Source: an uncultured delta proteobacterium (GTDB lineage Bacteria; Myxococcota; UBA727; VGSZ01). Taken from it: a stretch of 64,000 nt of DNA. The translations under genes and the position numbers were made by a program. Under the pieces are notes generated by a model. The model had not been told where the DNA came from, searched no databases, and saw only the letters and a program-made list of their open reading frames with translations. Positions 8,933 through 16,096 of the stretch are shown piece after piece. The DNA is taken from assembly GCA_963775425.1 (NCBI GenBank), contig CAVZJB010000006.1:96001-160000 (forward strand), read 5' to 3'. Position 1 is the stretch's first letter, and every line of letters begins with the position of its first letter.

Positions 8933-9742
8933 TCAGCGCTTCTTTTTGACGGGGGGCTTGGCGGCCGGCTTCTTCGCGGACTTGGGCGCCGGCTTGCCCG
9001 AGGGCTTCTTGGCGGCCGGCGCCTTCTTGGCCGGGGCAGCCGCGGCCTTCTTGGGCGCCGCCTTGGGGGCGGCCTTGGCCGGCGCGGCCTTCGCGGGCTT
9101 GACCGGCATGGCCGAGCGCGGGGCGGCCGGGGCGGGCCGCGTGGCCTGGCGCGGGGGGTTGGCGGGCTGCGCGCGGGCGCGTTCGGCGGCGGCGGCGGCC
9201 TCGCGGGCCTTCTGGGCGTCCGCCTCGTTCTTGGGGATGGGCTTGGCGGTGCGCCGCTCCTTGATGGTCTGTGGGGCCACCGGCGGCCACGGCGACCGGG
9301 ACTTCTTTTCGTCCTTGTCGTTGCGCCACAGGACGCAGGTGATGGTCCCCTGCATGACGCTGTCGTGGTTCTGGTTCTCGGCCCAGACGTCGACGTCGAC
9401 GCGGGCCTCGCCGTTGCTCTCGTAGCGCTCGGCGACCATCCCCGTCATGCGCAGGATGTCGCCCGGCCACACGAGCTTCCGGAAGCGCCCGGACACGCTC
9501 AGGATGCGGCCGTTCTCGAGCCACTTGCCGACGGCCTCGGTGGCGAAGGACAGCGCGATGGCGCCGTGGGCGAAGACGCCGCCGTAGCCCGCGCCCTTGG
9601 CGAAGTCGTCGTCGAGGTGCAGCGGGCTCCAGTCCTGCGACGCCCCGGCGAACTTGGCGATCTGCACGCGCGTGACAGCCGGCTTCGACACCGGCGTCAC
9701 TTGCTCGCCCTTTTCAATCGAATCCCAATACAGCTTGGGCAT
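8933..9742 (-). CDS. MaoC/HadB-like (R)-hydratase with Lys/Ala/Pro-rich histone-H1-like C-terminal tail
   Basis: Hydratase-2 motif FAGASQDWSPLHLD...AHG; tail PAKAAPKAAPKKAAAAPAKKAPAAKK. ATG overlaps the upstream TGA. Confidence 0.88.
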   Translation of the reverse strand: MPKLYWDSIEKGEQVTPVSKPAVTRVQIAKFAGASQDWSPLHLDDDFAKGAGYGGVFAHGAIALSFATEAVGKWLENGRILSVSGRFRKLVWPGDILRMTGMVAERYESNGEARVDVDVWAENQNHDSVMQGTITCVLWRNDKDEKKSRSPWPPVAPQTIKERRTAKPIPKNEADAQKAREAAAAAERARAQPANPPRQATRPAPAAPRSAMPVKPAKAAPAKAAPKAAPKKAAAAPAKKAPAAKKPSGKPAPKSAKKPAAKPPVKKKR

Positions 9743-10191
9743 CAGCGCCTCGGCAGCCCGCCGCGGACAACGAGAGTGCGCTGGGCCTCGAAGCGGACGT
9801 CGTCGGCTCGCTTGCCGGTGCCCACGACGTCGATCACGACGAACCCCATGGGGTTCCCGCTGGCCTGCTGCTCGTACACGTCCCGCAGCGTTGTGGTGAT
9901 TGTGAGCTCGTCGCCGACGCACACCGGCGCGAACATGCTGACGTATTCCTGCGCGTGAAGCACCTGCTTGGGTTTCAGCTCGAGCAGGTCGATGACGTGC
10001 TGGAAGTCGCCGAGGGTGGCGGCGGCGGCGTGCGGGAGCATGAGCCCGGAGAGGCCGGCGGAATGCGCCACCTTCTCGTCCACGGACATCGGGTCGGTGA
10101 CCTCGAGCGCATCCACGAAGCGCTGCACGAGCCCTCGCTCGACCACGATTGTCTTTTGGACCTTTTCGCCAAGATGGGCTTTATGCTTCAT
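9742..10191 (-). CDS. MaoC N-terminal/HadA-like hot-dog partner subunit
   Basis: VERGLVQRFVDAL and VLHAQEYVSMFAPVCVGDEL motifs; coupled to the HadB-like gene. Confidence 0.82.
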   Translation of the reverse strand: MKHKAHLGEKVQKTIVVERGLVQRFVDALEVTDPMSVDEKVAHSAGLSGLMLPHAAAATLGDFQHVIDLLELKPKQVLHAQEYVSMFAPVCVGDELTITTTLRDVYEQQASGNPMGFVVIDVVGTGKRADDVRFEAQRTLVVRGGLPRR

Positions 10192-10282: not shown

Positions 10283-11344
10283 TCAATGTTCTTTTGAGCG
10301 GCGGTTCAACAGGAACTTCACCGGGTCTTCGCGCAAGCCCTTCAAAACGGCGTGGAGGTCCGACGCCGCCTCTTCGTCCCAGAAGAGCTTGCCGGCGCCG
10401 CCGCGCTTGTCCTCGACGGCGCCGAGCAGCCTGTCGGCGCGCTTCATCACAGCGTCGAGGGAGCGCATGGCCTGCGTGACGTTCGCGAGGAGCTGCGCCT
10501 GCTTGTGCGGGTCGGCGAGCGCGGGCTGCTTGTCGAGCAGGTCGAGCGCCTTGTCGACGCGGGCGATGGCGTCCTTGCCCTCGGCGAGGAGCGCGGGCAC
10601 CTGATCGGATTCGAGCTTCGCGGTGGCGTCGAGGACGCCGGGCAATCGATCGAACGTCCCGCGCAGCGCGCGCCCGTCGCCGACCCCGACGGCCGCGCCG
10701 TGGACCAGCGCGCGCAGGTCGTCGGTGAAGGCGCGCAGGTCGTCGCCGCCCGGGACGTCGTCGTGCGCGAGCAGCGAATCGAGGCGCCGCATCAACGCCG
10801 ACAGCGAGCGCATGAGCTCGATCGCCTCCTGCGATTTGGGCAGGAGCTCTTCGAATTTGCCGAGCAGTCCCGAGGCTCGGGACAGCAGCAAATCCGGTCG
10901 ATCCTGGGAAATCCCATCGATGCGGGCGCCGTCCGCGAGGCGCGCGCCGCCGGGGACCGGCTCGAGGTCGAGGTAGTGCTCGCCGAGGACGCCGAGGGTG
11001 GTCACGCGGAAGCGCGCGCGGTCGGTGACGACGGGCATCGCGCGCTCCTCGATGCGCGCACGCACGCGCACCATCTTGTCGGGGCCGGCGGCCCGGTCCT
11101 GACCGGCGAGCAGCACGACGTCCTGGACGGCGCCGACCTCCACGCCCGACAGCCGCACCGACGCGCCCGGCTTGATGGGGCCCGCGAAGGCGAAGTCGAC
11201 GTCGATGGTCTCGCCGCGCACGATCTTGAGCGGCCCGGTGACGACGAGGATCGCGACGAGGATCCCCATGGACACCAGGGCGAGGAGCCCCACGCGGAAC
11301 GCGCGCGCCCGGTCCGCCGCTCGCGCCGGCCTCGGCTCCGTCAC
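10283..11344 (-). CDS. mlaD: MCE-domain (MlaD family) protein with a long helical C-terminus
   Basis: N-terminal TM (RVGLLALVSMG), GPIKPGASVRLSGVEVGAV, LGVLGEHYLDL and late GGAGKL motifs. GTG start overlaps the upstream stop. Confidence 0.9.
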   Translation of the reverse strand: MTEPRPARAADRARAFRVGLLALVSMGILVAILVVTGPLKIVRGETIDVDFAFAGPIKPGASVRLSGVEVGAVQDVVLLAGQDRAAGPDKMVRVRARIEERAMPVVTDRARFRVTTLGVLGEHYLDLEPVPGGARLADGARIDGISQDRPDLLLSRASGLLGKFEELLPKSQEAIELMRSLSALMRRLDSLLAHDDVPGGDDLRAFTDDLRALVHGAAVGVGDGRALRGTFDRLPGVLDATAKLESDQVPALLAEGKDAIARVDKALDLLDKQPALADPHKQAQLLANVTQAMRSLDAVMKRADRLLGAVEDKRGGAGKLFWDEEAASDLHAVLKGLREDPVKFLLNRRSKEH

Positions 11345-12003
11345 GCGGCCTCCCGGTGGACGCGGCCGCCGTCGACACGCACCACGTCGGGGCGCAGGCG
11401 CAGGAGCGTTCGCGGGCTGTGGGTGATGACGATGAGCGTGGTGCCCGTCAGGGCCGCGAGCGCGTCGTCCACCTGGCGCGCCGCCACGGGATCGAGGCCC
11501 GTGGTGGGCTCGTCGACGACGAGGACGCCGGGCTTCAAGCACAGCGCGCGCGCGAGCGAGACGCGCTTTTGCTGGGCGATCGACAAGGACGCCGGGGCCG
11601 CCCGGCGCACGTCGTCGAGGCCGAGCTCGGAGAGGGCGGCGTCGACGCGGGCCTGCGCTTCGTCGCGGGACACGTCCTGGCGGTCCACGGCGAACGCGAC
11701 GTTCTCCTCGACGTCGAGGGTGTCGAGCAGCGCGGGGTCCTGGTGCACGAAGACGAGCGGCGGCGCGGAGACGTGCACGCGGCCCTTCGCGAGCGGCAAG
11801 AGGCCCGCCGCGGCCTTCATGAGCACGCTCTTGCCCGCGCCCGATCGCCCGACGACGGCGTGCACCCGGTCGCGCGCGAACGACAGCGTGACGTCGTCAA
11901 TGACCACCCGGCCGCCGAGGGCGACCGTGACGCCTTCGAGCGCGAGCGCCGGTGTGTCGTGGGACGCGGCCTCGCCCGCCGCGGGGACGTCCTCGACCGT
12001 CAT
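11341..12003 (-). CDS. MlaF-like ABC ATPase 2 (degenerate signature motif)
   Basis: Walker A GRSGAGKS, signature LSIAQ, Walker B VLVVDEP, H-loop ITHS. Confidence 0.9.
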   Translation of the reverse strand: MTVEDVPAAGEAASHDTPALALEGVTVALGGRVVIDDVTLSFARDRVHAVVGRSGAGKSVLMKAAAGLLPLAKGRVHVSAPPLVFVHQDPALLDTLDVEENVAFAVDRQDVSRDEAQARVDAALSELGLDDVRRAAPASLSIAQQKRVSLARALCLKPGVLVVDEPTTGLDPVAARQVDDALAALTGTTLIVITHSPRTLLRLRPDVVRVDGGRVHREAA

Positions 12004-12749
12004 ACGGCGCTCCTGCCGACGAACCACGCGACGTCGAACAACACGCTGGCGATGAGGCACGCGACGACGCCGCCGACGACGGCGTTGGTGGCGGCGCGGC
12101 CGACGGCTTCGGCGCCGCCGCGCGCGCGCAGCGCCGTGCGCACGGCCATCACGAACACGAGCGCGCCGTTGACGGCGCACTTGGCGACGAGGAGGCCGAG
12201 GCCCGCGAGCGTGACGGCCTCCGGGTGAAAGAACGTGAACGGGTTCACGCCGCTTCGGCCCCACAGGGTGATCACGCCGGCGATCTCCCAGGAGACGAAG
12301 CCGAGGAGCCCGAGGCCGACGGCGCCGGCGACGAGGGCGGCGCCCATGGGGGCGAGCACGCTGCGCGCGGGGTCGAGCCCGAACAGCGAGAGCGCGTCGA
12401 GCGTGTCCTCGGACTGCAGCGTGGCCACCTCCGCGGCGAAGCCGGCGCCGACGCGCTGCGCGAGGGTGAGCGCGACGATGAGCGGGCCGAACTCCTCGAC
12501 GCCCAGCACGATGTACTCGGGCCCGATGAAGCTCTGGTCGCCGAGCAGCCGCATGGCCTGCCGCGCGGCTTGATCGCCGAGCGCGACGCCGACGGCCGCG
12601 ACGGTGACGGTGACGAGCAGGAGCGACCCGGGCAGCACCTCGTCGAGCCGGCGGAGCAGCGCGCGGCCGTCGAGGCGCCAGGGCGTGAGCGCGAACGTGA
12701 GCGCGCGCGTCGTCGACGCCAGCGCGAGCTGCGGCGCGGCGGCGGTCAT
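12000..12749 (-). CDS. MlaE/YrbE family permease 2
   Basis: EEFGPLIVALTLAQRVGAGFAAEVATL...DAL...G.DP and VGRAATNAVV motifs. Confidence 0.9.
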   Translation of the reverse strand: MTAAAPQLALASTTRALTFALTPWRLDGRALLRRLDEVLPGSLLLVTVTVAAVGVALGDQAARQAMRLLGDQSFIGPEYIVLGVEEFGPLIVALTLAQRVGAGFAAEVATLQSEDTLDALSLFGLDPARSVLAPMGAALVAGAVGLGLLGFVSWEIAGVITLWGRSGVNPFTFFHPEAVTLAGLGLLVAKCAVNGALVFVMAVRTALRARGGAEAVGRAATNAVVGGVVACLIASVLFDVAWFVGRSAV

Positions 12750-13585
12750 GACGCGCCTCCGACGAGGGACAGCGCCGCGTTGAGGACCATGACGCCACAC
12801 AGGGAGAGCACGCTGCCCGCGTAGACGGCGCGGCCGATGGCGCCGGCGGAGCAATCGGCGCTCCTCTCGACCGAGACGCCCGCGTGGCACGACGACAGCC
12901 CGACGACGGCGCCGAAGAGCGTCATGCGCACGAGGCCGTTGGCGAGGGACGCGGGCTCGAGGTACTCGACGAACGACCACCAGCTCGTGGCGATGGATTG
13001 GCCGCCGACGAGGTCGGCGACGACGAAGCCGACGGCGAGCACGACGCTGCACGAGGGCACGTACAAGAGCGCGGACGCGGCGACGGTGGCGACCACGCGC
13101 GGCGCGATGAGCACGCGCTCGGGGTCGAGGCCGAGGGCGCGCACGGCGTCGAGGCGCTCGCGGGCGGCCATCATGGCGACCTCGGCCGTGTTGCGGGCGC
13201 CGGTGCGCGCGGCGAGCCCGACGCCGAGGAGGAGCGGGCCGACGTCGCGGTACGACGACAGCGCGGCCGCCCAACCAAAGACCTCGCCGGCGGCGTACCG
13301 CTTGATGTAGCCGAGGCCCTGCATGGCGACGATGCCGCCGACGGCGGTACAGGCGACGAGCATGAGGGGCAGCGCGTCCCTGAGCAGGCGATCGAGCTGG
13401 CGCAGCGTCTCGCGCCCGTCGACCTTGAGGCGCACCATGCCGTCGACGGTCTGCGCCGCGCGCACGAGGATCGCGCCGAGCTCCTCGATGACGAACATCA
13501 CGCGGAACCCGAGCGCCGTGATCAGCGGCGCGCCCAGCGCCAGGGGCAGCGCGGCCGTCGTCGGAGGGTGCGCACGCCTGATCAC
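12746..13585 (-). CDS. MlaE/YrbE family permease 1
   Basis: RDVGPLL...ARTGARNTAEVAMM...ERLDAVRALGLDP...PRVVA motifs. Start uncertain. Confidence 0.9.
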   Translation of the reverse strand: MIRRAHPPTTAALPLALGAPLITALGFRVMFVIEELGAILVRAAQTVDGMVRLKVDGRETLRQLDRLLRDALPLMLVACTAVGGIVAMQGLGYIKRYAAGEVFGWAAALSSYRDVGPLLLGVGLAARTGARNTAEVAMMAARERLDAVRALGLDPERVLIAPRVVATVAASALLYVPSCSVVLAVGFVVADLVGGQSIATSWWSFVEYLEPASLANGLVRMTLFGAVVGLSSCHAGVSVERSADCSAGAIGRAVYAGSVLSLCGVMVLNAALSLVGGAS

Positions 13586-13619
13586 GCCGCCCTCCGCCGT
13601 CCGGGGGACACCGGTGCCG

Positions 13620-14318
13620 TCACGGGGAGGCCTCGACGGGGGCGAACGCGGCGGTGCGCGCGTCGGCGGCGAGCGCCGCGGGCGTGCCGAGGAAGACCGG
13701 CTTTCCCTCCTCGAGGACGAGGGCCTGCGCGCAGCGCGGGAGCACGACGTCGACGTCCTGGGTGGCGATGACGACGCAGCGCTCGCGCTCGCCTTCGAGG
13801 AGGAGCGCGAGCACCTCGGCGGCGGTGTCGGGGTCGAGGCCGGCGGTGGGGTCGTCCGCGAGGAGCAACGCGGGGGCGACCGCGAGCGCGCGCGCGATGC
13901 CGACGCGCTTCTTCATGCCGCCGGAGAGCTGCCGCGGCAGCTTGTCGGCGTCGGTGCCGAGGCCGACGCGCGCGAGCGCCTCGCGCGCGGCCTCCCGCTC
14001 GGCGACGACGGCGACGTTGCCCAGGGCGGTCTTCGCGTCGTCGAGCGCGTCGCGCTGAAAGACCATCGCCACGCGCCCCGCCGGCGTCGCGAGCGCGCCC
14101 TCGCTCCCGCACAGCCCGGCGAGCGCCGCGAGCAGCAACGACTTGCCGGCGCCCGGCCCGCCGAGGACCGCGAGCGGCGCCCCCGGCTGCACCGTGAACG
14201 ACAGCGGCCCGAGCGCGAGCCCGCCGCGCCCGCGGGCCGACAGCCCGTCGACGACGAGCCGCGCTCCCGCGTCGGCTGCCGCGGTCCCGCGCGCGCCGTC
14301 GTCTGCCTCGCCGGTCAT
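13620..14318 (-). CDS. MlaF-like ABC ATPase 1 (degenerate Walker B and H-loop)
   Basis: Walker A GGPGAGKS, signature LSGGMKKR, Walker B LLLADDP, H-loop IATQD. Confidence 0.9.
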   Translation of the reverse strand: MTGEADDGARGTAAADAGARLVVDGLSARGRGGLALGPLSFTVQPGAPLAVLGGPGAGKSLLLAALAGLCGSEGALATPAGRVAMVFQRDALDDAKTALGNVAVVAEREAAREALARVGLGTDADKLPRQLSGGMKKRVGIARALAVAPALLLADDPTAGLDPDTAAEVLALLLEGERERCVVIATQDVDVVLPRCAQALVLEEGKPVFLGTPAALAADARTAAFAPVEASP

Positions 14319-16096
14319 TGGCCCTCACCGCCGGCGTCGTAGGGCGGGGGCTTGCCCCCCGCGTCGGGCTGGACCAAGCGGCGCCGCCCGCCGGCCGCGA
14401 GGAGGCCCCGCACGGTCAGCTTCGGCAGGCGCCCGCCCGTCAGGTACCAGGCGAAGGCGACGCCGAAGCAGCCGCCGGCGACGACGAAGAGCGCGGCCGC
14501 GATGAGCGGAGCCATCACGAGGGACACGCCGGCGCGGGTGAGGATGTCGAAGCCGCCGAGGATGCAGGCGGCGGCGAGGGCGCCGCCGAAGATGGTCATG
14601 CCCAGGCCGCGCAGCGCGTTTTGCAACCCGTCGAGGTCGGCGCTCTTGACGACGACCTGCACCTGGCCACGCTCGAGATCCATGAGCGCCTGGCCGAGCT
14701 GCAGCGGCACCTCCTGCACGAGGAGCCCGAGCTGCAGCGCGGTGCGCAGCCCGCCGGCCTTCCACTGCCGCGGGTCCACGCGCTCCATGAGGAGCTCTTC
14801 GGCGCGTCGGGTGAGCACCGGGCCGGGGTCGAAGCCCGGATGCAAGGTGCGCACGATGCCTTCGATGGACACGCTCGCCTTCGACAGGATGGCGAACTCG
14901 CGGGGCAGGCGGACGCCGAACCTCGTCGACAGCTCGACGAGGTCGGAGAAGACGCCGGCGGTGCTCACCTCGGACACCGTGAGCCCGAGGTAGCGATCGA
15001 GCAGCCGCGCCACCTGCGTGCGCAGGTGTGCGATCTCGATGCGCTTGTCGCTCTCGCCGATGCGCACGATCAGGCGGGCGAGGGTGTCGGCGTCGCGCAG
15101 CGACAGCGCGAGGAGCACGAGGAGCAGGCGGTCCTGCGTCTCCCGCGACACGCGTCCGACGAGGCCGAAGTCGATGAAGGCGATCTTGCCGTCGTCGGTG
15201 ACGAGGAGGTTCCCGGGGTGGGGATCGCCGTGGAACATGCCGTCGATGAACACGTGCTCGAAGGCCACCTCGACGAGGCGCTCGATGATCGTCTCGGCCT
15301 CGGGGGTGCCCTTCAGCTCCGTGATGCGCCGGCCGTGGATGCGCTCCATCACGAGCACCGTCGCCGACGACAGCTCCGGATACGGCCGCGGCACGTGGAC
15401 CCCGGTGCGCGTCGCGTTGGCGGTGGCGAACGCGCGCAGGTTCCTCAGCTCGGACGTGAAGTCGAGCTCCACGCGCAGCGCCTCCTGGAACTCGCGCACG
15501 AAGTCGGCGGTGTGGTACCGGTGCGCCTCTTCGACGACGCGCTCGAGCAACTGTGCGAGCACCACGAGCATCTCGGCGTCGCGCTTGACCTGCTCCTGGA
15601 TGCCCGGCCGTTGCACCTTGATGACGATGTCGTCGCCGGAGGGGAGCTTGGCGGCGTGCACCTGCGCCATCGACGCCGACGCCAGCGCGGTCTCGTCGAC
15701 GGACGCGAACACCTCGTGCATGGGCCGGCCGAGCGCGCGCTCGACCTGCGCCCGCACGTCGGCGAAGGGAAAGGGCGGCACCTGATCCTGCAGGCGCGAC
15801 AAGGCGGTGATGAAGTCGGCGGGGAGGAGGTCGCCGCGCGTGGACAGGATCTGCCCGAGCTTCACGAACGTGGGCCCGAGGTCCTCGAGCATGGTGGCGA
15901 AGCGCTCCGCCGCCGGCCGCTGGTCGACGCCGCGGCCCGTGTCCCGCACGAAGCGGCGCACGAGCGGGATGGTGCGCATGGACGGCGCAAAGCCGTGCCG
16001 CGCCATCACCGCCGCGATCTCGCGGAGCCGCCCGAGCCGCGACGTCGCATGCTCGAGCGCGCGCTCCTGTGCCTCCGGCCGGGGGTCCGCCGCCAT
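14315..16096 (-). CDS. AarF/ABC1/UbiB family atypical kinase with two C-terminal TM helices
   Basis: LGPTFVKLGQILS, ASASMAQVH, IKVQRPG, FHGDPHPGN and IDFG motifs. Confidence 0.95.
   Translation of the reverse strand: MAADPRPEAQERALEHATSRLGRLREIAAVMARHGFAPSMRTIPLVRRFVRDTGRGVDQRPAAERFATMLEDLGPTFVKLGQILSTRGDLLPADFITALSRLQDQVPPFPFADVRAQVERALGRPMHEVFASVDETALASASMAQVHAAKLPSGDDIVIKVQRPGIQEQVKRDAEMLVVLAQLLERVVEEAHRYHTADFVREFQEALRVELDFTSELRNLRAFATANATRTGVHVPRPYPELSSATVLVMERIHGRRITELKGTPEAETIIERLVEVAFEHVFIDGMFHGDPHPGNLLVTDDGKIAFIDFGLVGRVSRETQDRLLLVLLALSLRDADTLARLIVRIGESDKRIEIAHLRTQVARLLDRYLGLTVSEVSTAGVFSDLVELSTRFGVRLPREFAILSKASVSIEGIVRTLHPGFDPGPVLTRRAEELLMERVDPRQWKAGGLRTALQLGLLVQEVPLQLGQALMDLERGQVQVVVKSADLDGLQNALRGLGMTIFGGALAAACILGGFDILTRAGVSLVMAPLIAAALFVVAGGCFGVAFAWYLTGGRLPKLTVRGLLAAGGRRRLVQPDAGGKPPPYDAGGEGQ

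Follow-up and report, generated by a model that had tools for sequence, protein, structure and literature searches.

To our knowledge, MCE transporters (Mla, Mce1-4 and TGD) have been treated as symmetric ATPase motors, even where their permeases are heterodimeric, and work on degenerate ATP sites has been confined almost entirely to type IV exporters such as TAP, CFTR and TM287/288. In an ABC dimer, the Walker A, Walker B and H-loop motifs that one subunit brings to an ATP site are completed by the signature motif of its partner. In TAP, Asp and Gln occur in TAP1 and LAAGQ in TAP2. In the excerpts available, the E. coli Mla complex is described as MlaF2E2D6B2 (PMC7790496) and Mce1 as a YrbE1A/B heterodimer with a MceG homodimer (PMC9882608), both agreeing with the original prediction that characterised MCE systems use homodimeric ATPases. 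For TM287/288, the available part of the source describes a degenerate site in which Walker B has a non-canonical aspartate and the signature departs from consensus, and which holds the NBDs together (PMC5216877).

Six genes with the order K-F1-E1-E2-F2-D were identified on one strand within a window of 64,000 nucleotides, the whole stretch of DNA analysed (Table 1). By Pfam, the operon encodes two ABC_tran proteins, two MlaE proteins and one MlaD protein. Start and stop codons overlap by 4 nt (ATGA or GTGA) at four of the five junctions: the stop of K overlaps the start of F1 in an ATGA, E2 shares ATGA overlaps with both E1 and F2, and the start of D overlaps F2 in a GTGA; the F1/E1 junction is a 34-nt gap. 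Judged from sequence, the permeases and the MCE protein appear to be those of an MCE/MlaFE-type (type VIII) ABC transporter. Full-text literature searches found no MCE system with two ATPases, in keeping with the suggestion that the operon may represent an undescribed MCE subclass; we could find no description, for the MCE family, of a conserved operon with two unlike permeases and two unlike ATPases.

Table 1. Genes and ATPase motifs of the operon (positions are those of the window; all six genes lie on the minus strand)
Feature	Position	Strand	Basis
K, UbiB/ABC1 atypical kinase-like, 593 aa	14315..16096	-	Pfam PF03109 ABC1, 1.6e-68
F1, ABC ATPase, 232 aa	13620..14318	-	Pfam ABC_tran 1.8e-23
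F1 Walker A GGPGAGKS, residues 53-60, intact	14139..14162	-	sequence
F1 signature LSGGM, residues 131-135, canonical	13914..13928	-	sequence
F1 Walker B LLLADDP, residues 151-157; Asp156 at catalytic Glu position	13848..13868	-	sequence, alignment
F1 H-loop IATQD; Gln187 replaces His	13755..13769	-	sequence
E1, MlaE-family permease 1, 279 aa, GTG start	12746..13585	-	Pfam PF02405, 3.9e-40
E2, MlaE-family permease 2, 249 aa	12000..12749	-	Pfam PF02405, 3.1e-30
F2, ABC ATPase, 220 aa	11341..12003	-	Pfam ABC_tran 3.1e-24
F2 Walker A GRSGAGKS, residues 52-59, consensus	11341..12003 (gene)	-	sequence
F2 signature LSIAQ, residues 140-144, degenerate	11572..11586	-	sequence, alignment
F2 Walker B LVVDEPT; catalytic Glu165 present	11503..11523	-	sequence
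F2 H-loop VITHS; His195 present	11416..11430	-	sequence
D, MCE/MlaD protein, 353 aa, GTG start	10283..11344	-	Pfam PF02470, 5.1e-13, above cut-off

In NCBIfam, the match of the permeases to TIGR00056 was below its cut-off, D matched TIGR00996 (Mtu_fam_mce) over residues 18-273, and neither F1 nor F2 was assigned to MlaF or another equivalog, as no MlaF model stood among the top matches and all matches were below the cut-offs. Quick trees separated a group of F1, F2 and canonical MlaF-like proteins from MetN and the remaining ABC ATPases with moderate support (SH-aLRT 83-86), placed F2 inside the MlaF-like group (SH-aLRT 90-93) and indicated that F1 has diverged further than F2. The E1 and E2 proteins form separate old clades (SH-aLRT 98 and 99, respectively) with matching internal branching, which speaks for their co-inheritance. 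An AlphaFold2 model of D predicted an N-terminal membrane helix (residues 7-36), one MCE beta-barrel (strands in residues 44-143, pLDDT 80-93) and a C-terminal region that is helical throughout its roughly 200 residues (helices in 150-350, low pLDDT).

The positions and motifs originally given for both ATPases were reproduced without change by re-reading of the sequence, Pfam and HMMER. In HMMER alignments to solved ABC proteins, the "Dd" of the F1 family falls on the Walker B D-E and the LSIAQ of F2 on the LSGGE signature; the Q-loops read VFQRDAL in F1 and VHQDPAL in F2. The Walker B and H-loop defects thus lie in F1 and the signature defect in F2, the reciprocal motifs being intact, which is the pattern of ABC dimers that combine a degenerate with a consensus site. 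As each site takes motifs from both subunits, the defects of a mixed dimer would gather in one site and leave the other as a consensus site. Nucleotide binding by F1 is expected from its intact Walker A motif and, to judge from the conservative nature of the Glu-to-Asp change, some activity may remain.

We consider it likely that the operon encodes an MCE (type VIII) transporter of composition F1F2·E1E2·D6, in which one ATP site is degenerate and the other is consensus. The six genes would form a single operon for an MlaFE-like lipid transporter in which permeases and ATPases each occur in two unlike versions, E1 and E2 forming the membrane dimer, F1 and F2 the nucleotide-binding dimer, and D, by analogy with MlaD, a hexameric ring prolonged by a long helical tube. 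The Walker and H-loop side of F1 together with the signature of F2 would make up the degenerate site, at which ATP would be bound but hydrolysed poorly or not at all, and the Walker and H-loop side of F2 together with the LSGGM of F1 would make up the single consensus site powering the cycle. The degenerate site probably holds the ATPases engaged or has a regulatory role, as in TM287/288 and TAP. What the sequences show is the gene order, the motifs and the conservation of these motifs across the families; the pairing of F1 with F2, the stoichiometry, a single hydrolysis per cycle, and the lipid substrate and its direction are inferred.

Conservation was assessed in loci of related genomes (12 genomes with F1 and 14 with F2) and in a collection of 5.8 billion proteins, all family members originating from metagenome-assembled genomes or metagenomes. 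The order F1-E1-E2-F2 was found in every contig of sufficient length (12 further genomes, representing four or more families of the phylum). All 12 locus F1s had lost the catalytic Glu, the H-loop His or both, Glu being absent from 11 (replaced by Asp in 8, Ala in 2 and Asn in 1) and His from 7, while [LI]SGG[MQ] was kept in every one. Among the window protein and its 52 best database matches listed, Glu and/or His was missing from 52 of 53 (both from 23, Glu only from 19 and His only from 10), the single exception being P0048, which retains both; 55 of the remaining 67 listed matches have both residues. On the F2 side, D-E-P and His were kept in 14/14 locus proteins and LSGG in none, the signatures being LSIAQ, LAVAL, LATAL, MTPGA, LSPSQ (four times), LTPGQ, LSPGA, LSPAL, VSAGA, LSAGE and LGPGQ. 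Database relatives of F2 covering the region exhibited the same pattern (Glu 117/117, His 117/117, LSGG 0/117), and the Walker A GRSGAGKS and Q-loop VHQDPAL were almost invariant among them; certain F2 signatures are altered just mildly (LSAGE, LSPGQ).

Being conserved, the motif pattern is far beyond chance, and the family-wide statistics of F1 and F2 indicate that selection keeps the half-sites that would combine into one consensus site and relaxes those that would make up the other site. The F1-side and F2-side losses occurred together in every orthologous operon examined and across the two protein families, so the possibility raised with the original prediction, that orthologues would have canonical motifs, was not borne out. 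The expectation that the Asp/Gln and signature substitutions co-occur held for the losses on the two sides but not for the individual residues: the change of His to Gln was not universal, and some F1s had lost only His. As His is kept in five of the 12 locus F1s and Glu in some, what is conserved is a crippled F1 site rather than the exact triple of substitutions. Decay in one genome or sequencing error was rejected as extremely improbable; nothing favours it except the general expectation of errors in metagenome-assembled genomes. All reading frames are open, and independently assembled relatives with as little as about 30-40% identity show the same pattern.

A different assembly would be two homodimeric motors, with F1-F1 on E1 and F2-F2 on E2, or F2 alone on E1E2; D would then be shared between two transporters or between alternative assemblies. 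The ATPases of characterised MCE systems are homodimers, the F1-E1/E2-F2 gene order is mirror-symmetric, and altered signatures are tolerated by some ABC proteins. However, an F1 homodimer would have two sites lacking the catalytic Glu and/or His and an F2 homodimer two sites lacking a canonical signature, and a fully consensus site is obtained only from a mixed dimer, this complementarity extending over 12/12 and 14/14 loci and 52/53 and 117/117 database relatives. The distribution of genes in two split loci also runs against this reading: K-F1 is on one contig and E1-E2-F2-D on another in genome G038, and E1-E2 is apart from F2-D in G056, so that cuts never separate F1-E1 from E2-F2. We therefore regard paired homodimers as improbable. 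The scattering of genes in these two genomes indicates that tight linkage is not obligatory; as a point for co-inheritance, 15 F1/F2 database pairs agree in the size of their longest source contig.

The K protein has hydrophobic C-terminal segments, and its gene is directly upstream of F1 in 10 of the 11 genomes in which upstream DNA was visible. No STAS/MlaB gene was present in the operon by gene list and Pfam, and the genome of the operon (94.6% complete) yielded no match to MlaC (PF05494), for which control genomes gave matches. The adjacency of K and F1 and the absence of a STAS/MlaB gene, along with the retention of K-F1 as a pair in G038 and the greater divergence of F1, could be explained if F1 were not a motor but a nucleotide-binding regulator or adaptor tied to K, with an MlaB-like role, and F2 had another partner. 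F1s have nevertheless kept the parts needed by an NBD partner, namely the Walker A Lys-Ser/Thr (57/57 members covering the motif), [LM]SGG (58/58), the Q-loop Gln (54/58) and an invariant G-L-D-P D-loop (alignment A2), and an invariant canonical signature is sensible only if a partner NBD relies on it for an active site. F1 is thus unlikely to be a regulator instead of a motor subunit; a regulatory function is, however, compatible with the F1-F2 heterodimer and may come on top of it.

A tentative and rather doubtful reading is that the degenerate F1 serves for both docking and control, and that K, as a membrane-bound protein, acts through it to gate an MCE tunnel spanning the envelope. In this scheme, a hydrophobic lipid of isoprenoid or quinone-like type would be sensed or extracted by K, which would pass control on to F2 and its single active site, forming a UbiB-MCE lipid export or import machine that replaces the MlaB/MlaC logic. 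Such gating would fit the adjacency of K and F1, their persistence as a pair when the other genes are elsewhere, their ATGA coupling and the absence of MlaB and MlaC.

The operon resembles E. coli MlaFEDB (PDB 6XBD) in having an MlaE-family permease, an MCE protein with an N-terminal membrane helix and an adjacent MlaF-related ABC ATPase in a lipid-transport context. It differs in encoding two unlike permeases and two unlike ATPases where MlaFEDB has two copies of each, in lacking MlaB and an MlaC match, and in the helical residues following the MCE domain of D. F1 and F2 end 45 and 25 residues, respectively, past the H-loop, leaving little room for the C-terminal "handshake" extension of MlaF described in the accessible text. 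By the same partial account, a "true" Mla pathway comprises MlaFEDCB and MlaA with a short MlaD C terminus, from which the operon is set apart by its long D C terminus and by the missing MlaC and STAS genes.

Mycobacterial Mce1 (YrbE1A/YrbE1B, MceG homodimer and Mce1A-F, according to the excerpts available) shares heterodimeric permeases and long helical C-terminal MCE parts with the operon. However, Mce1 has six different MCE proteins and one ATPase gene, whose homodimeric product is extended C-terminally by about 120 residues, whereas the operon has just one MCE gene and a pair of ATPase genes whose defects are complementary. Of the hallmarks of actinobacterial Mce systems (two YrbE genes, six Mce genes and an MceG homodimer in common), the operon has the two permeases only. 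Whereas all characterised MCE members have homodimeric ATPases, the operon has two ATPase genes with complementary motifs that are conserved family-wide.

The motif logic is that of heterodimeric type IV ABC exporters with a degenerate site (TM287/288, TAP1/2, BmrCD and MsRv1273c/72c), where one chain has Asp in Walker B, the signature of the other chain deviates and a single consensus site is left. In these exporters, which are half-transporters, the membrane domain is fused to the ATPase and differs in fold, whereas the operon has separate ATPases on MlaE-type permeases; hence, the mechanism would be that of type IV heterodimers without membership in their family. If so, the operon would provide a natural MCE system with one catalytic site, in which lipid extraction or insertion by the MCE fold proceeds on one hydrolysis per cycle, and a ready-made asymmetric complex for cryo-EM with every subunit distinguishable. 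It marks a conserved, uncharacterised envelope lipid system of uncultured Myxococcota-like bacteria that is tied to a UbiB-family protein, bacterial UbiB roles being poorly understood.

The genome carrying the operon (G000) also holds a two-permease, one-ATPase MCE locus (C3, L029), which has counterparts in G009 and G056 and is similar in that a pair of MlaE genes precedes an ATPase gene and an MlaD gene. Its single ATPase is, however, fully canonical (LSGGQ, DEP, THD), and its permeases fall together in a clade distinct from those of E1 and E2 (SH-aLRT 85).

Fused tandem MlaF-MlaF proteins were also detected, in 59 database clusters whose sources include Lujinxingia vulgaris and Bradymonadaceae bacterium TMQ3. 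They exhibit the same polarity of asymmetry, with [LI]SGGM in domain 1 (59/59) and, in domain 2, replacement of the first signature Gly (59/59) with retention of DEP and His. Unlike F1/F2, the catalytic Glu is present in both halves of 57 of the 59. The fused halves group together next to canonical MlaF (SH-aLRT 92), indicating an independent duplication.

Six co-directional genes occupy the minus strand of the window between positions 16096 and 10283, in DNA with a G+C content of about 71-75%. They encode a UbiB/ABC1 kinase-like protein (K), an ABC ATPase (F1), two MlaE permeases (E1 and E2), a second ABC ATPase (F2) and an MCE/MlaD protein (D). Start and stop codons overlap as ATGA at K/F1, E1/E2 and E2/F2 and as GTGA at F2/D; the F1/E1 junction alone is gapped, by 34 nt. 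Such overlaps are typical of subunits of one complex whose translation is coupled. Just downstream of D lies a pair of dehydratase genes, and the MaoC-like protein 3' of D has a long Ala/Pro/Lys-rich, histone-H1-like C-terminal tail. This pair was rejected as a component of the system, since only in the two closest relatives (80-94% identity) does it adjoin D; a third has it at a distance of 4 kb.

Features of the window and of a second two-permease MCE locus of the same genome
Feature	Sequence	Position	Strand	Length (aa)	Domain or content
K	window	16096-14315	-	593	Pfam ABC1 (UbiB-type kinase-like domain), 1.6e-68
F1	window	14318-13620	-	232	Pfam ABC_tran
E1	window	13585-12746	-	279	Pfam MlaE
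E2	window	12749-12000	-	249	Pfam MlaE
F2	window	12003-11341	-	220	Pfam ABC_tran
D	window	11344-10283	-	353	Pfam MlaD
Dehydratase pair	window	8933-10191	-		FAS1-DH-like/MaoC-like (HadA/HadB-like)
Second two-MlaE MCE locus	contig C3, locus L029	2866-6313	-		two MlaE, one canonical ATPase, MlaD

The two ATPases had been predicted to carry complementary degenerate motifs, and each motif was found exactly as read. F1 contains GGPGAGKS, LSGGM, LLLADDP, with Asp156 in place of the catalytic Glu of Walker B, and IATQD, with Gln187 in place of the H-loop His; F2 contains GRSGAGKS, LVVDEPT and VITHS together with a signature, LSIAQ, that departs from the canonical LSGG. The signature and Walker B positions were confirmed by HMMER alignments of the ATPases to solved ABC proteins. 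Neither F1 nor F2 could be assigned to a family in an NCBIfam scan, and public annotations describe their relatives merely as ABC or MlaF-like ATPases.

Orthologous loci were fetched from relatives of the window's genome (G000; 8.26 Mb, 18 contigs). The order F1-E1-E2-F2 was present wherever the contig was long enough, mostly with K before and D after (G006, G004, G002, G017, G005, G014, G012, G010, G007, G003, G008 and G157); the last of these genomes, at ~40% identity, belongs to a different family of the phylum. F1 motifs were read off translations from 12 genomes, including that of the window. The catalytic Glu was replaced in 11 of the 12 (by Asp in eight, Ala in two and Asn in one), and the twelfth, the F1 of G157, retains Glu and has Ala for the H-loop His. 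The His was gone in 7/12 (Gln in four, Asn in two, Ala in one), while [LI]SGG[MQ] and the Walker A Lys-Ser/Thr were retained in all 12. F2 was counted in 14 genomes, with G004 left out as its contig ends before the signature; D-E-P and the H-loop His were present in 14/14 and LSGG in none, the signatures being LSIAQ, LAVAL, LATAL, MTPGA, LSPSQ (four times), LTPGQ, LSPGA, LSPAL, VSAGA, LSAGE and LGPGQ. Orthologues with canonical motifs would have spoken against the original prediction; instead, the F1 losses recur in 12/12 and the loss of the F2 signature in 14/14. Decay or sequencing error was rejected as a cause of the motif changes because these changes are conserved. Profile searches of five genomes with the F1 and F2 alignments matched every ABC ATPase and were informative only after the top loci had been inspected.

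The same motifs were counted in a collection of 5.8 billion proteins. Among the window F1 and its 52 best matches (P0006-P0057, ranks as listed), Glu and His are both missing in 23 sequences, Glu alone in 19 and His alone in 10; P0048 is the sole member of the 53 retaining both. In P0198, the presumed F2 partner of this exception, the signature remains degenerate (LGDGP). Both residues were present in 55 of the other 67 F1 matches listed, which are generic MetN-like and MlaF-like ATPases, and five of the 12 exceptions resemble further F1-type proteins. Addition of those five to the ranked sequences gave a partly hand-picked set of 58, in which LSGG or MSGG was present in 58/58 and the Walker A Lys-Ser/Thr in 57/57. 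The F2 of the window, taken together with its relatives (P0125-P0241), provided 117 sequences covering the region; all 117 have the Glu (one with DEA for DEP) and the His, none has LSGG, and GRSGAGKS and VHQDPAL hardly vary. LSGGM is found in the first match outside this family, P0242 (37% identity). In fifteen cases, P0048 and P0198 among them, an F1 and an F2 entry of the database have an identical size of longest contig, which suggests that the two members of each pair sit on the same contigs. A look-up of organism names for clusters of distant members brought no cultured host of the F1/F2 system to light.

Each ABC site is formed by the Walker A, Walker B and H-loop of one domain and the signature of the other. 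This rule is stated for TAP in PMC4242082. In an F1-F2 dimer, the motor side of F1 and the signature of F2 would form one site holding every conserved loss, and the motor side of F2 would join the LSGGM of F1 in a site with nothing lost. Both sites would be defective in a homodimer of either ATPase, and the losses would be confined to one site of a mixed dimer, for which reason we think, judging from the sequences, that the complex would be F1F2·E1E2·D6. ATP would then stay bound at the F1 site, with hydrolysis taking place at that of F2. In TM287/288, the degenerate site, which has a Walker B aspartate and an altered signature, cannot hydrolyse ATP and maintains contact between the nucleotide-binding domains (NBDs) (PMC5216877); by analogy, this is most likely the role of the degenerate F1 site. 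A complex prediction with chains F1, E1, E2 and F2, the last as partner, gave a median score of 0.49, and a control with E1 replaced gave 0.36, a result that counts neither for nor against F1-F2 pairing. No fusion of F1 with F2, or of an E with an F subunit, turned up in a database search for such proteins of this family.

Fused proteins were found in a separate tandem MlaF-MlaF family of about 510-600 aa (P0249-P0307, 59 clusters), whose sources include Lujinxingia vulgaris, Bradymonadaceae bacterium TMQ3 and Kofleriaceae and Haliangiales MAGs. In the first half, [LI]SGGM is kept in 59/59, and two members have Asp for Glu; in the second, another residue takes the place of the first signature Gly in 59/59 (ISEGQ, ISAGQ, ISSGQ and others). 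As proof of F1-F2 pairing these proteins were rejected, since the tree indicated an independent duplication and hence a parallel case; they may provide a way to study an asymmetric MCE motor in cultured bacteria. A metagenome scan for the tandem form yielded 80 loci that were, by match length (about 700-840 bases), ordinary single-domain MlaF genes, and the form was not found in two phylum searches of 401 genomes each.

Among characterised systems, MlaFEDB is MlaF2E2D6B2 (PMC7790496) and Mce1 has a YrbE1A/B heterodimer with an MceG homodimer (PMC9882608). No MCE or Mla system with a degenerate site or a second ATPase turned up in a full-text literature search; the papers listed for 'degenerate site' all concern type IV exporters, and on MlaDE in Gracilicutes the accessible text of a phylogenomic Mla survey speaks of no more than 'several duplications' (PMC10665443). 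In our view the system joins a familiar fold to a familiar type of asymmetry between ATP sites, a combination unreported for this type of transporter.

Quick maximum-likelihood trees of the ATPases and permeases were evaluated with SH-aLRT support only. F2 formed one clade (96 and 94) nested in canonical MlaF-like ATPases (90-93), including the ATPase of the two-permease locus of G000. F1 formed three firm subclades, weakly united as one clade (71), and F1, F2 and MlaF-like proteins together were split from MetN and other ABC ATPases (83-86). A single clade of F1 plus F2 was neither recovered nor rejected (AU p = 0.396), so the pair may stem from one duplication or from two recruitments. E1 (98) and E2 (99) each form an old clade of their own, and the two clades branch internally in parallel; the permeases of canonical two-permease loci form a separate clade (85). 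G000 has three grades of system: on contig C9, a single permease with a single ATPase; on C3, a pair of permeases with one ATPase and MlaD; and, in the window, the fully asymmetric system. The C3 ATPase is fully canonical (LSGGQ, DEP, THD); this locus represents a mycobacterial-style grade of hetero-permease and homo-ATPase, which recurs in G009 (L065) and G056 (L066). MlaD domains are present at five places in G000, on C3, C6, C12, C17 and, below the cut-off, C9.

The model of D (mean pLDDT 62) has a membrane helix at residues 7-36, a confident MCE barrel at 44-143 and ~200 helical residues at low confidence, as would be expected of a part folding only in the oligomer. The actinobacterial Mce family model TIGR00996 aligns to residues 18-273, below its cut-off. 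MlaC (PF05494) had no match in the G000 assembly (94.6% complete), and E. coli and Caulobacter controls matched. These features would fit an MCE system of the tunnel or bridge type rather than one of the MlaC shuttle type.

A search of 401 sampled genomes of the phylum with F2 (E <= 1e-30) gave matches in 14, including the window's own: 8 of the 10 genomes in its family, both of those in a second one and scattered single genomes. One match, G286, was rejected on inspection as an ordinary single-permease MlaE-MlaF pair with LSGGM. Within the window's class, 11 of 38 genomes had an F2 match, and the gene was absent from all 21 small genomes (0.3-3.4 Mb). The family of these 21 genomes, of high estimated completeness, shares order and class with the 8.3-Mb window genome. 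When 185,579 species genomes were scanned with two very specific patterns from the E2 alignment, 12 loci were detected, all in records with Myxococcota-type titles.

Some loci are variant (ARRANGEMENTS). In genome G014, neither K nor D adjoins F1-E1-E2-F2. In G038, K-F1 is on one contig and E1-E2-F2-D on another; its F1 has DDP and Asn for His, and its F2 signature is LGPGQ. The system is scattered in the 11-Mb genome G056 (= G401), where E1-E2 alone and F2-D alone occupy separate contigs (loci L043 and L059). Its F2 carries a mildly altered signature, LSAGE, and none of its top profile matches was recognised as an F1-type gene. None of the cuts in these three genomes falls between the two permeases. 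A literature search returned no paper connecting UbiB with MCE systems. Of the 11 genomes in which the DNA upstream of F1 is visible, 10 have K immediately before it (the window and loci L021-L025, L028, L038, L039 and L058), and K stays beside F1 in G038, whose E1-E2-F2-D genes are on another contig.
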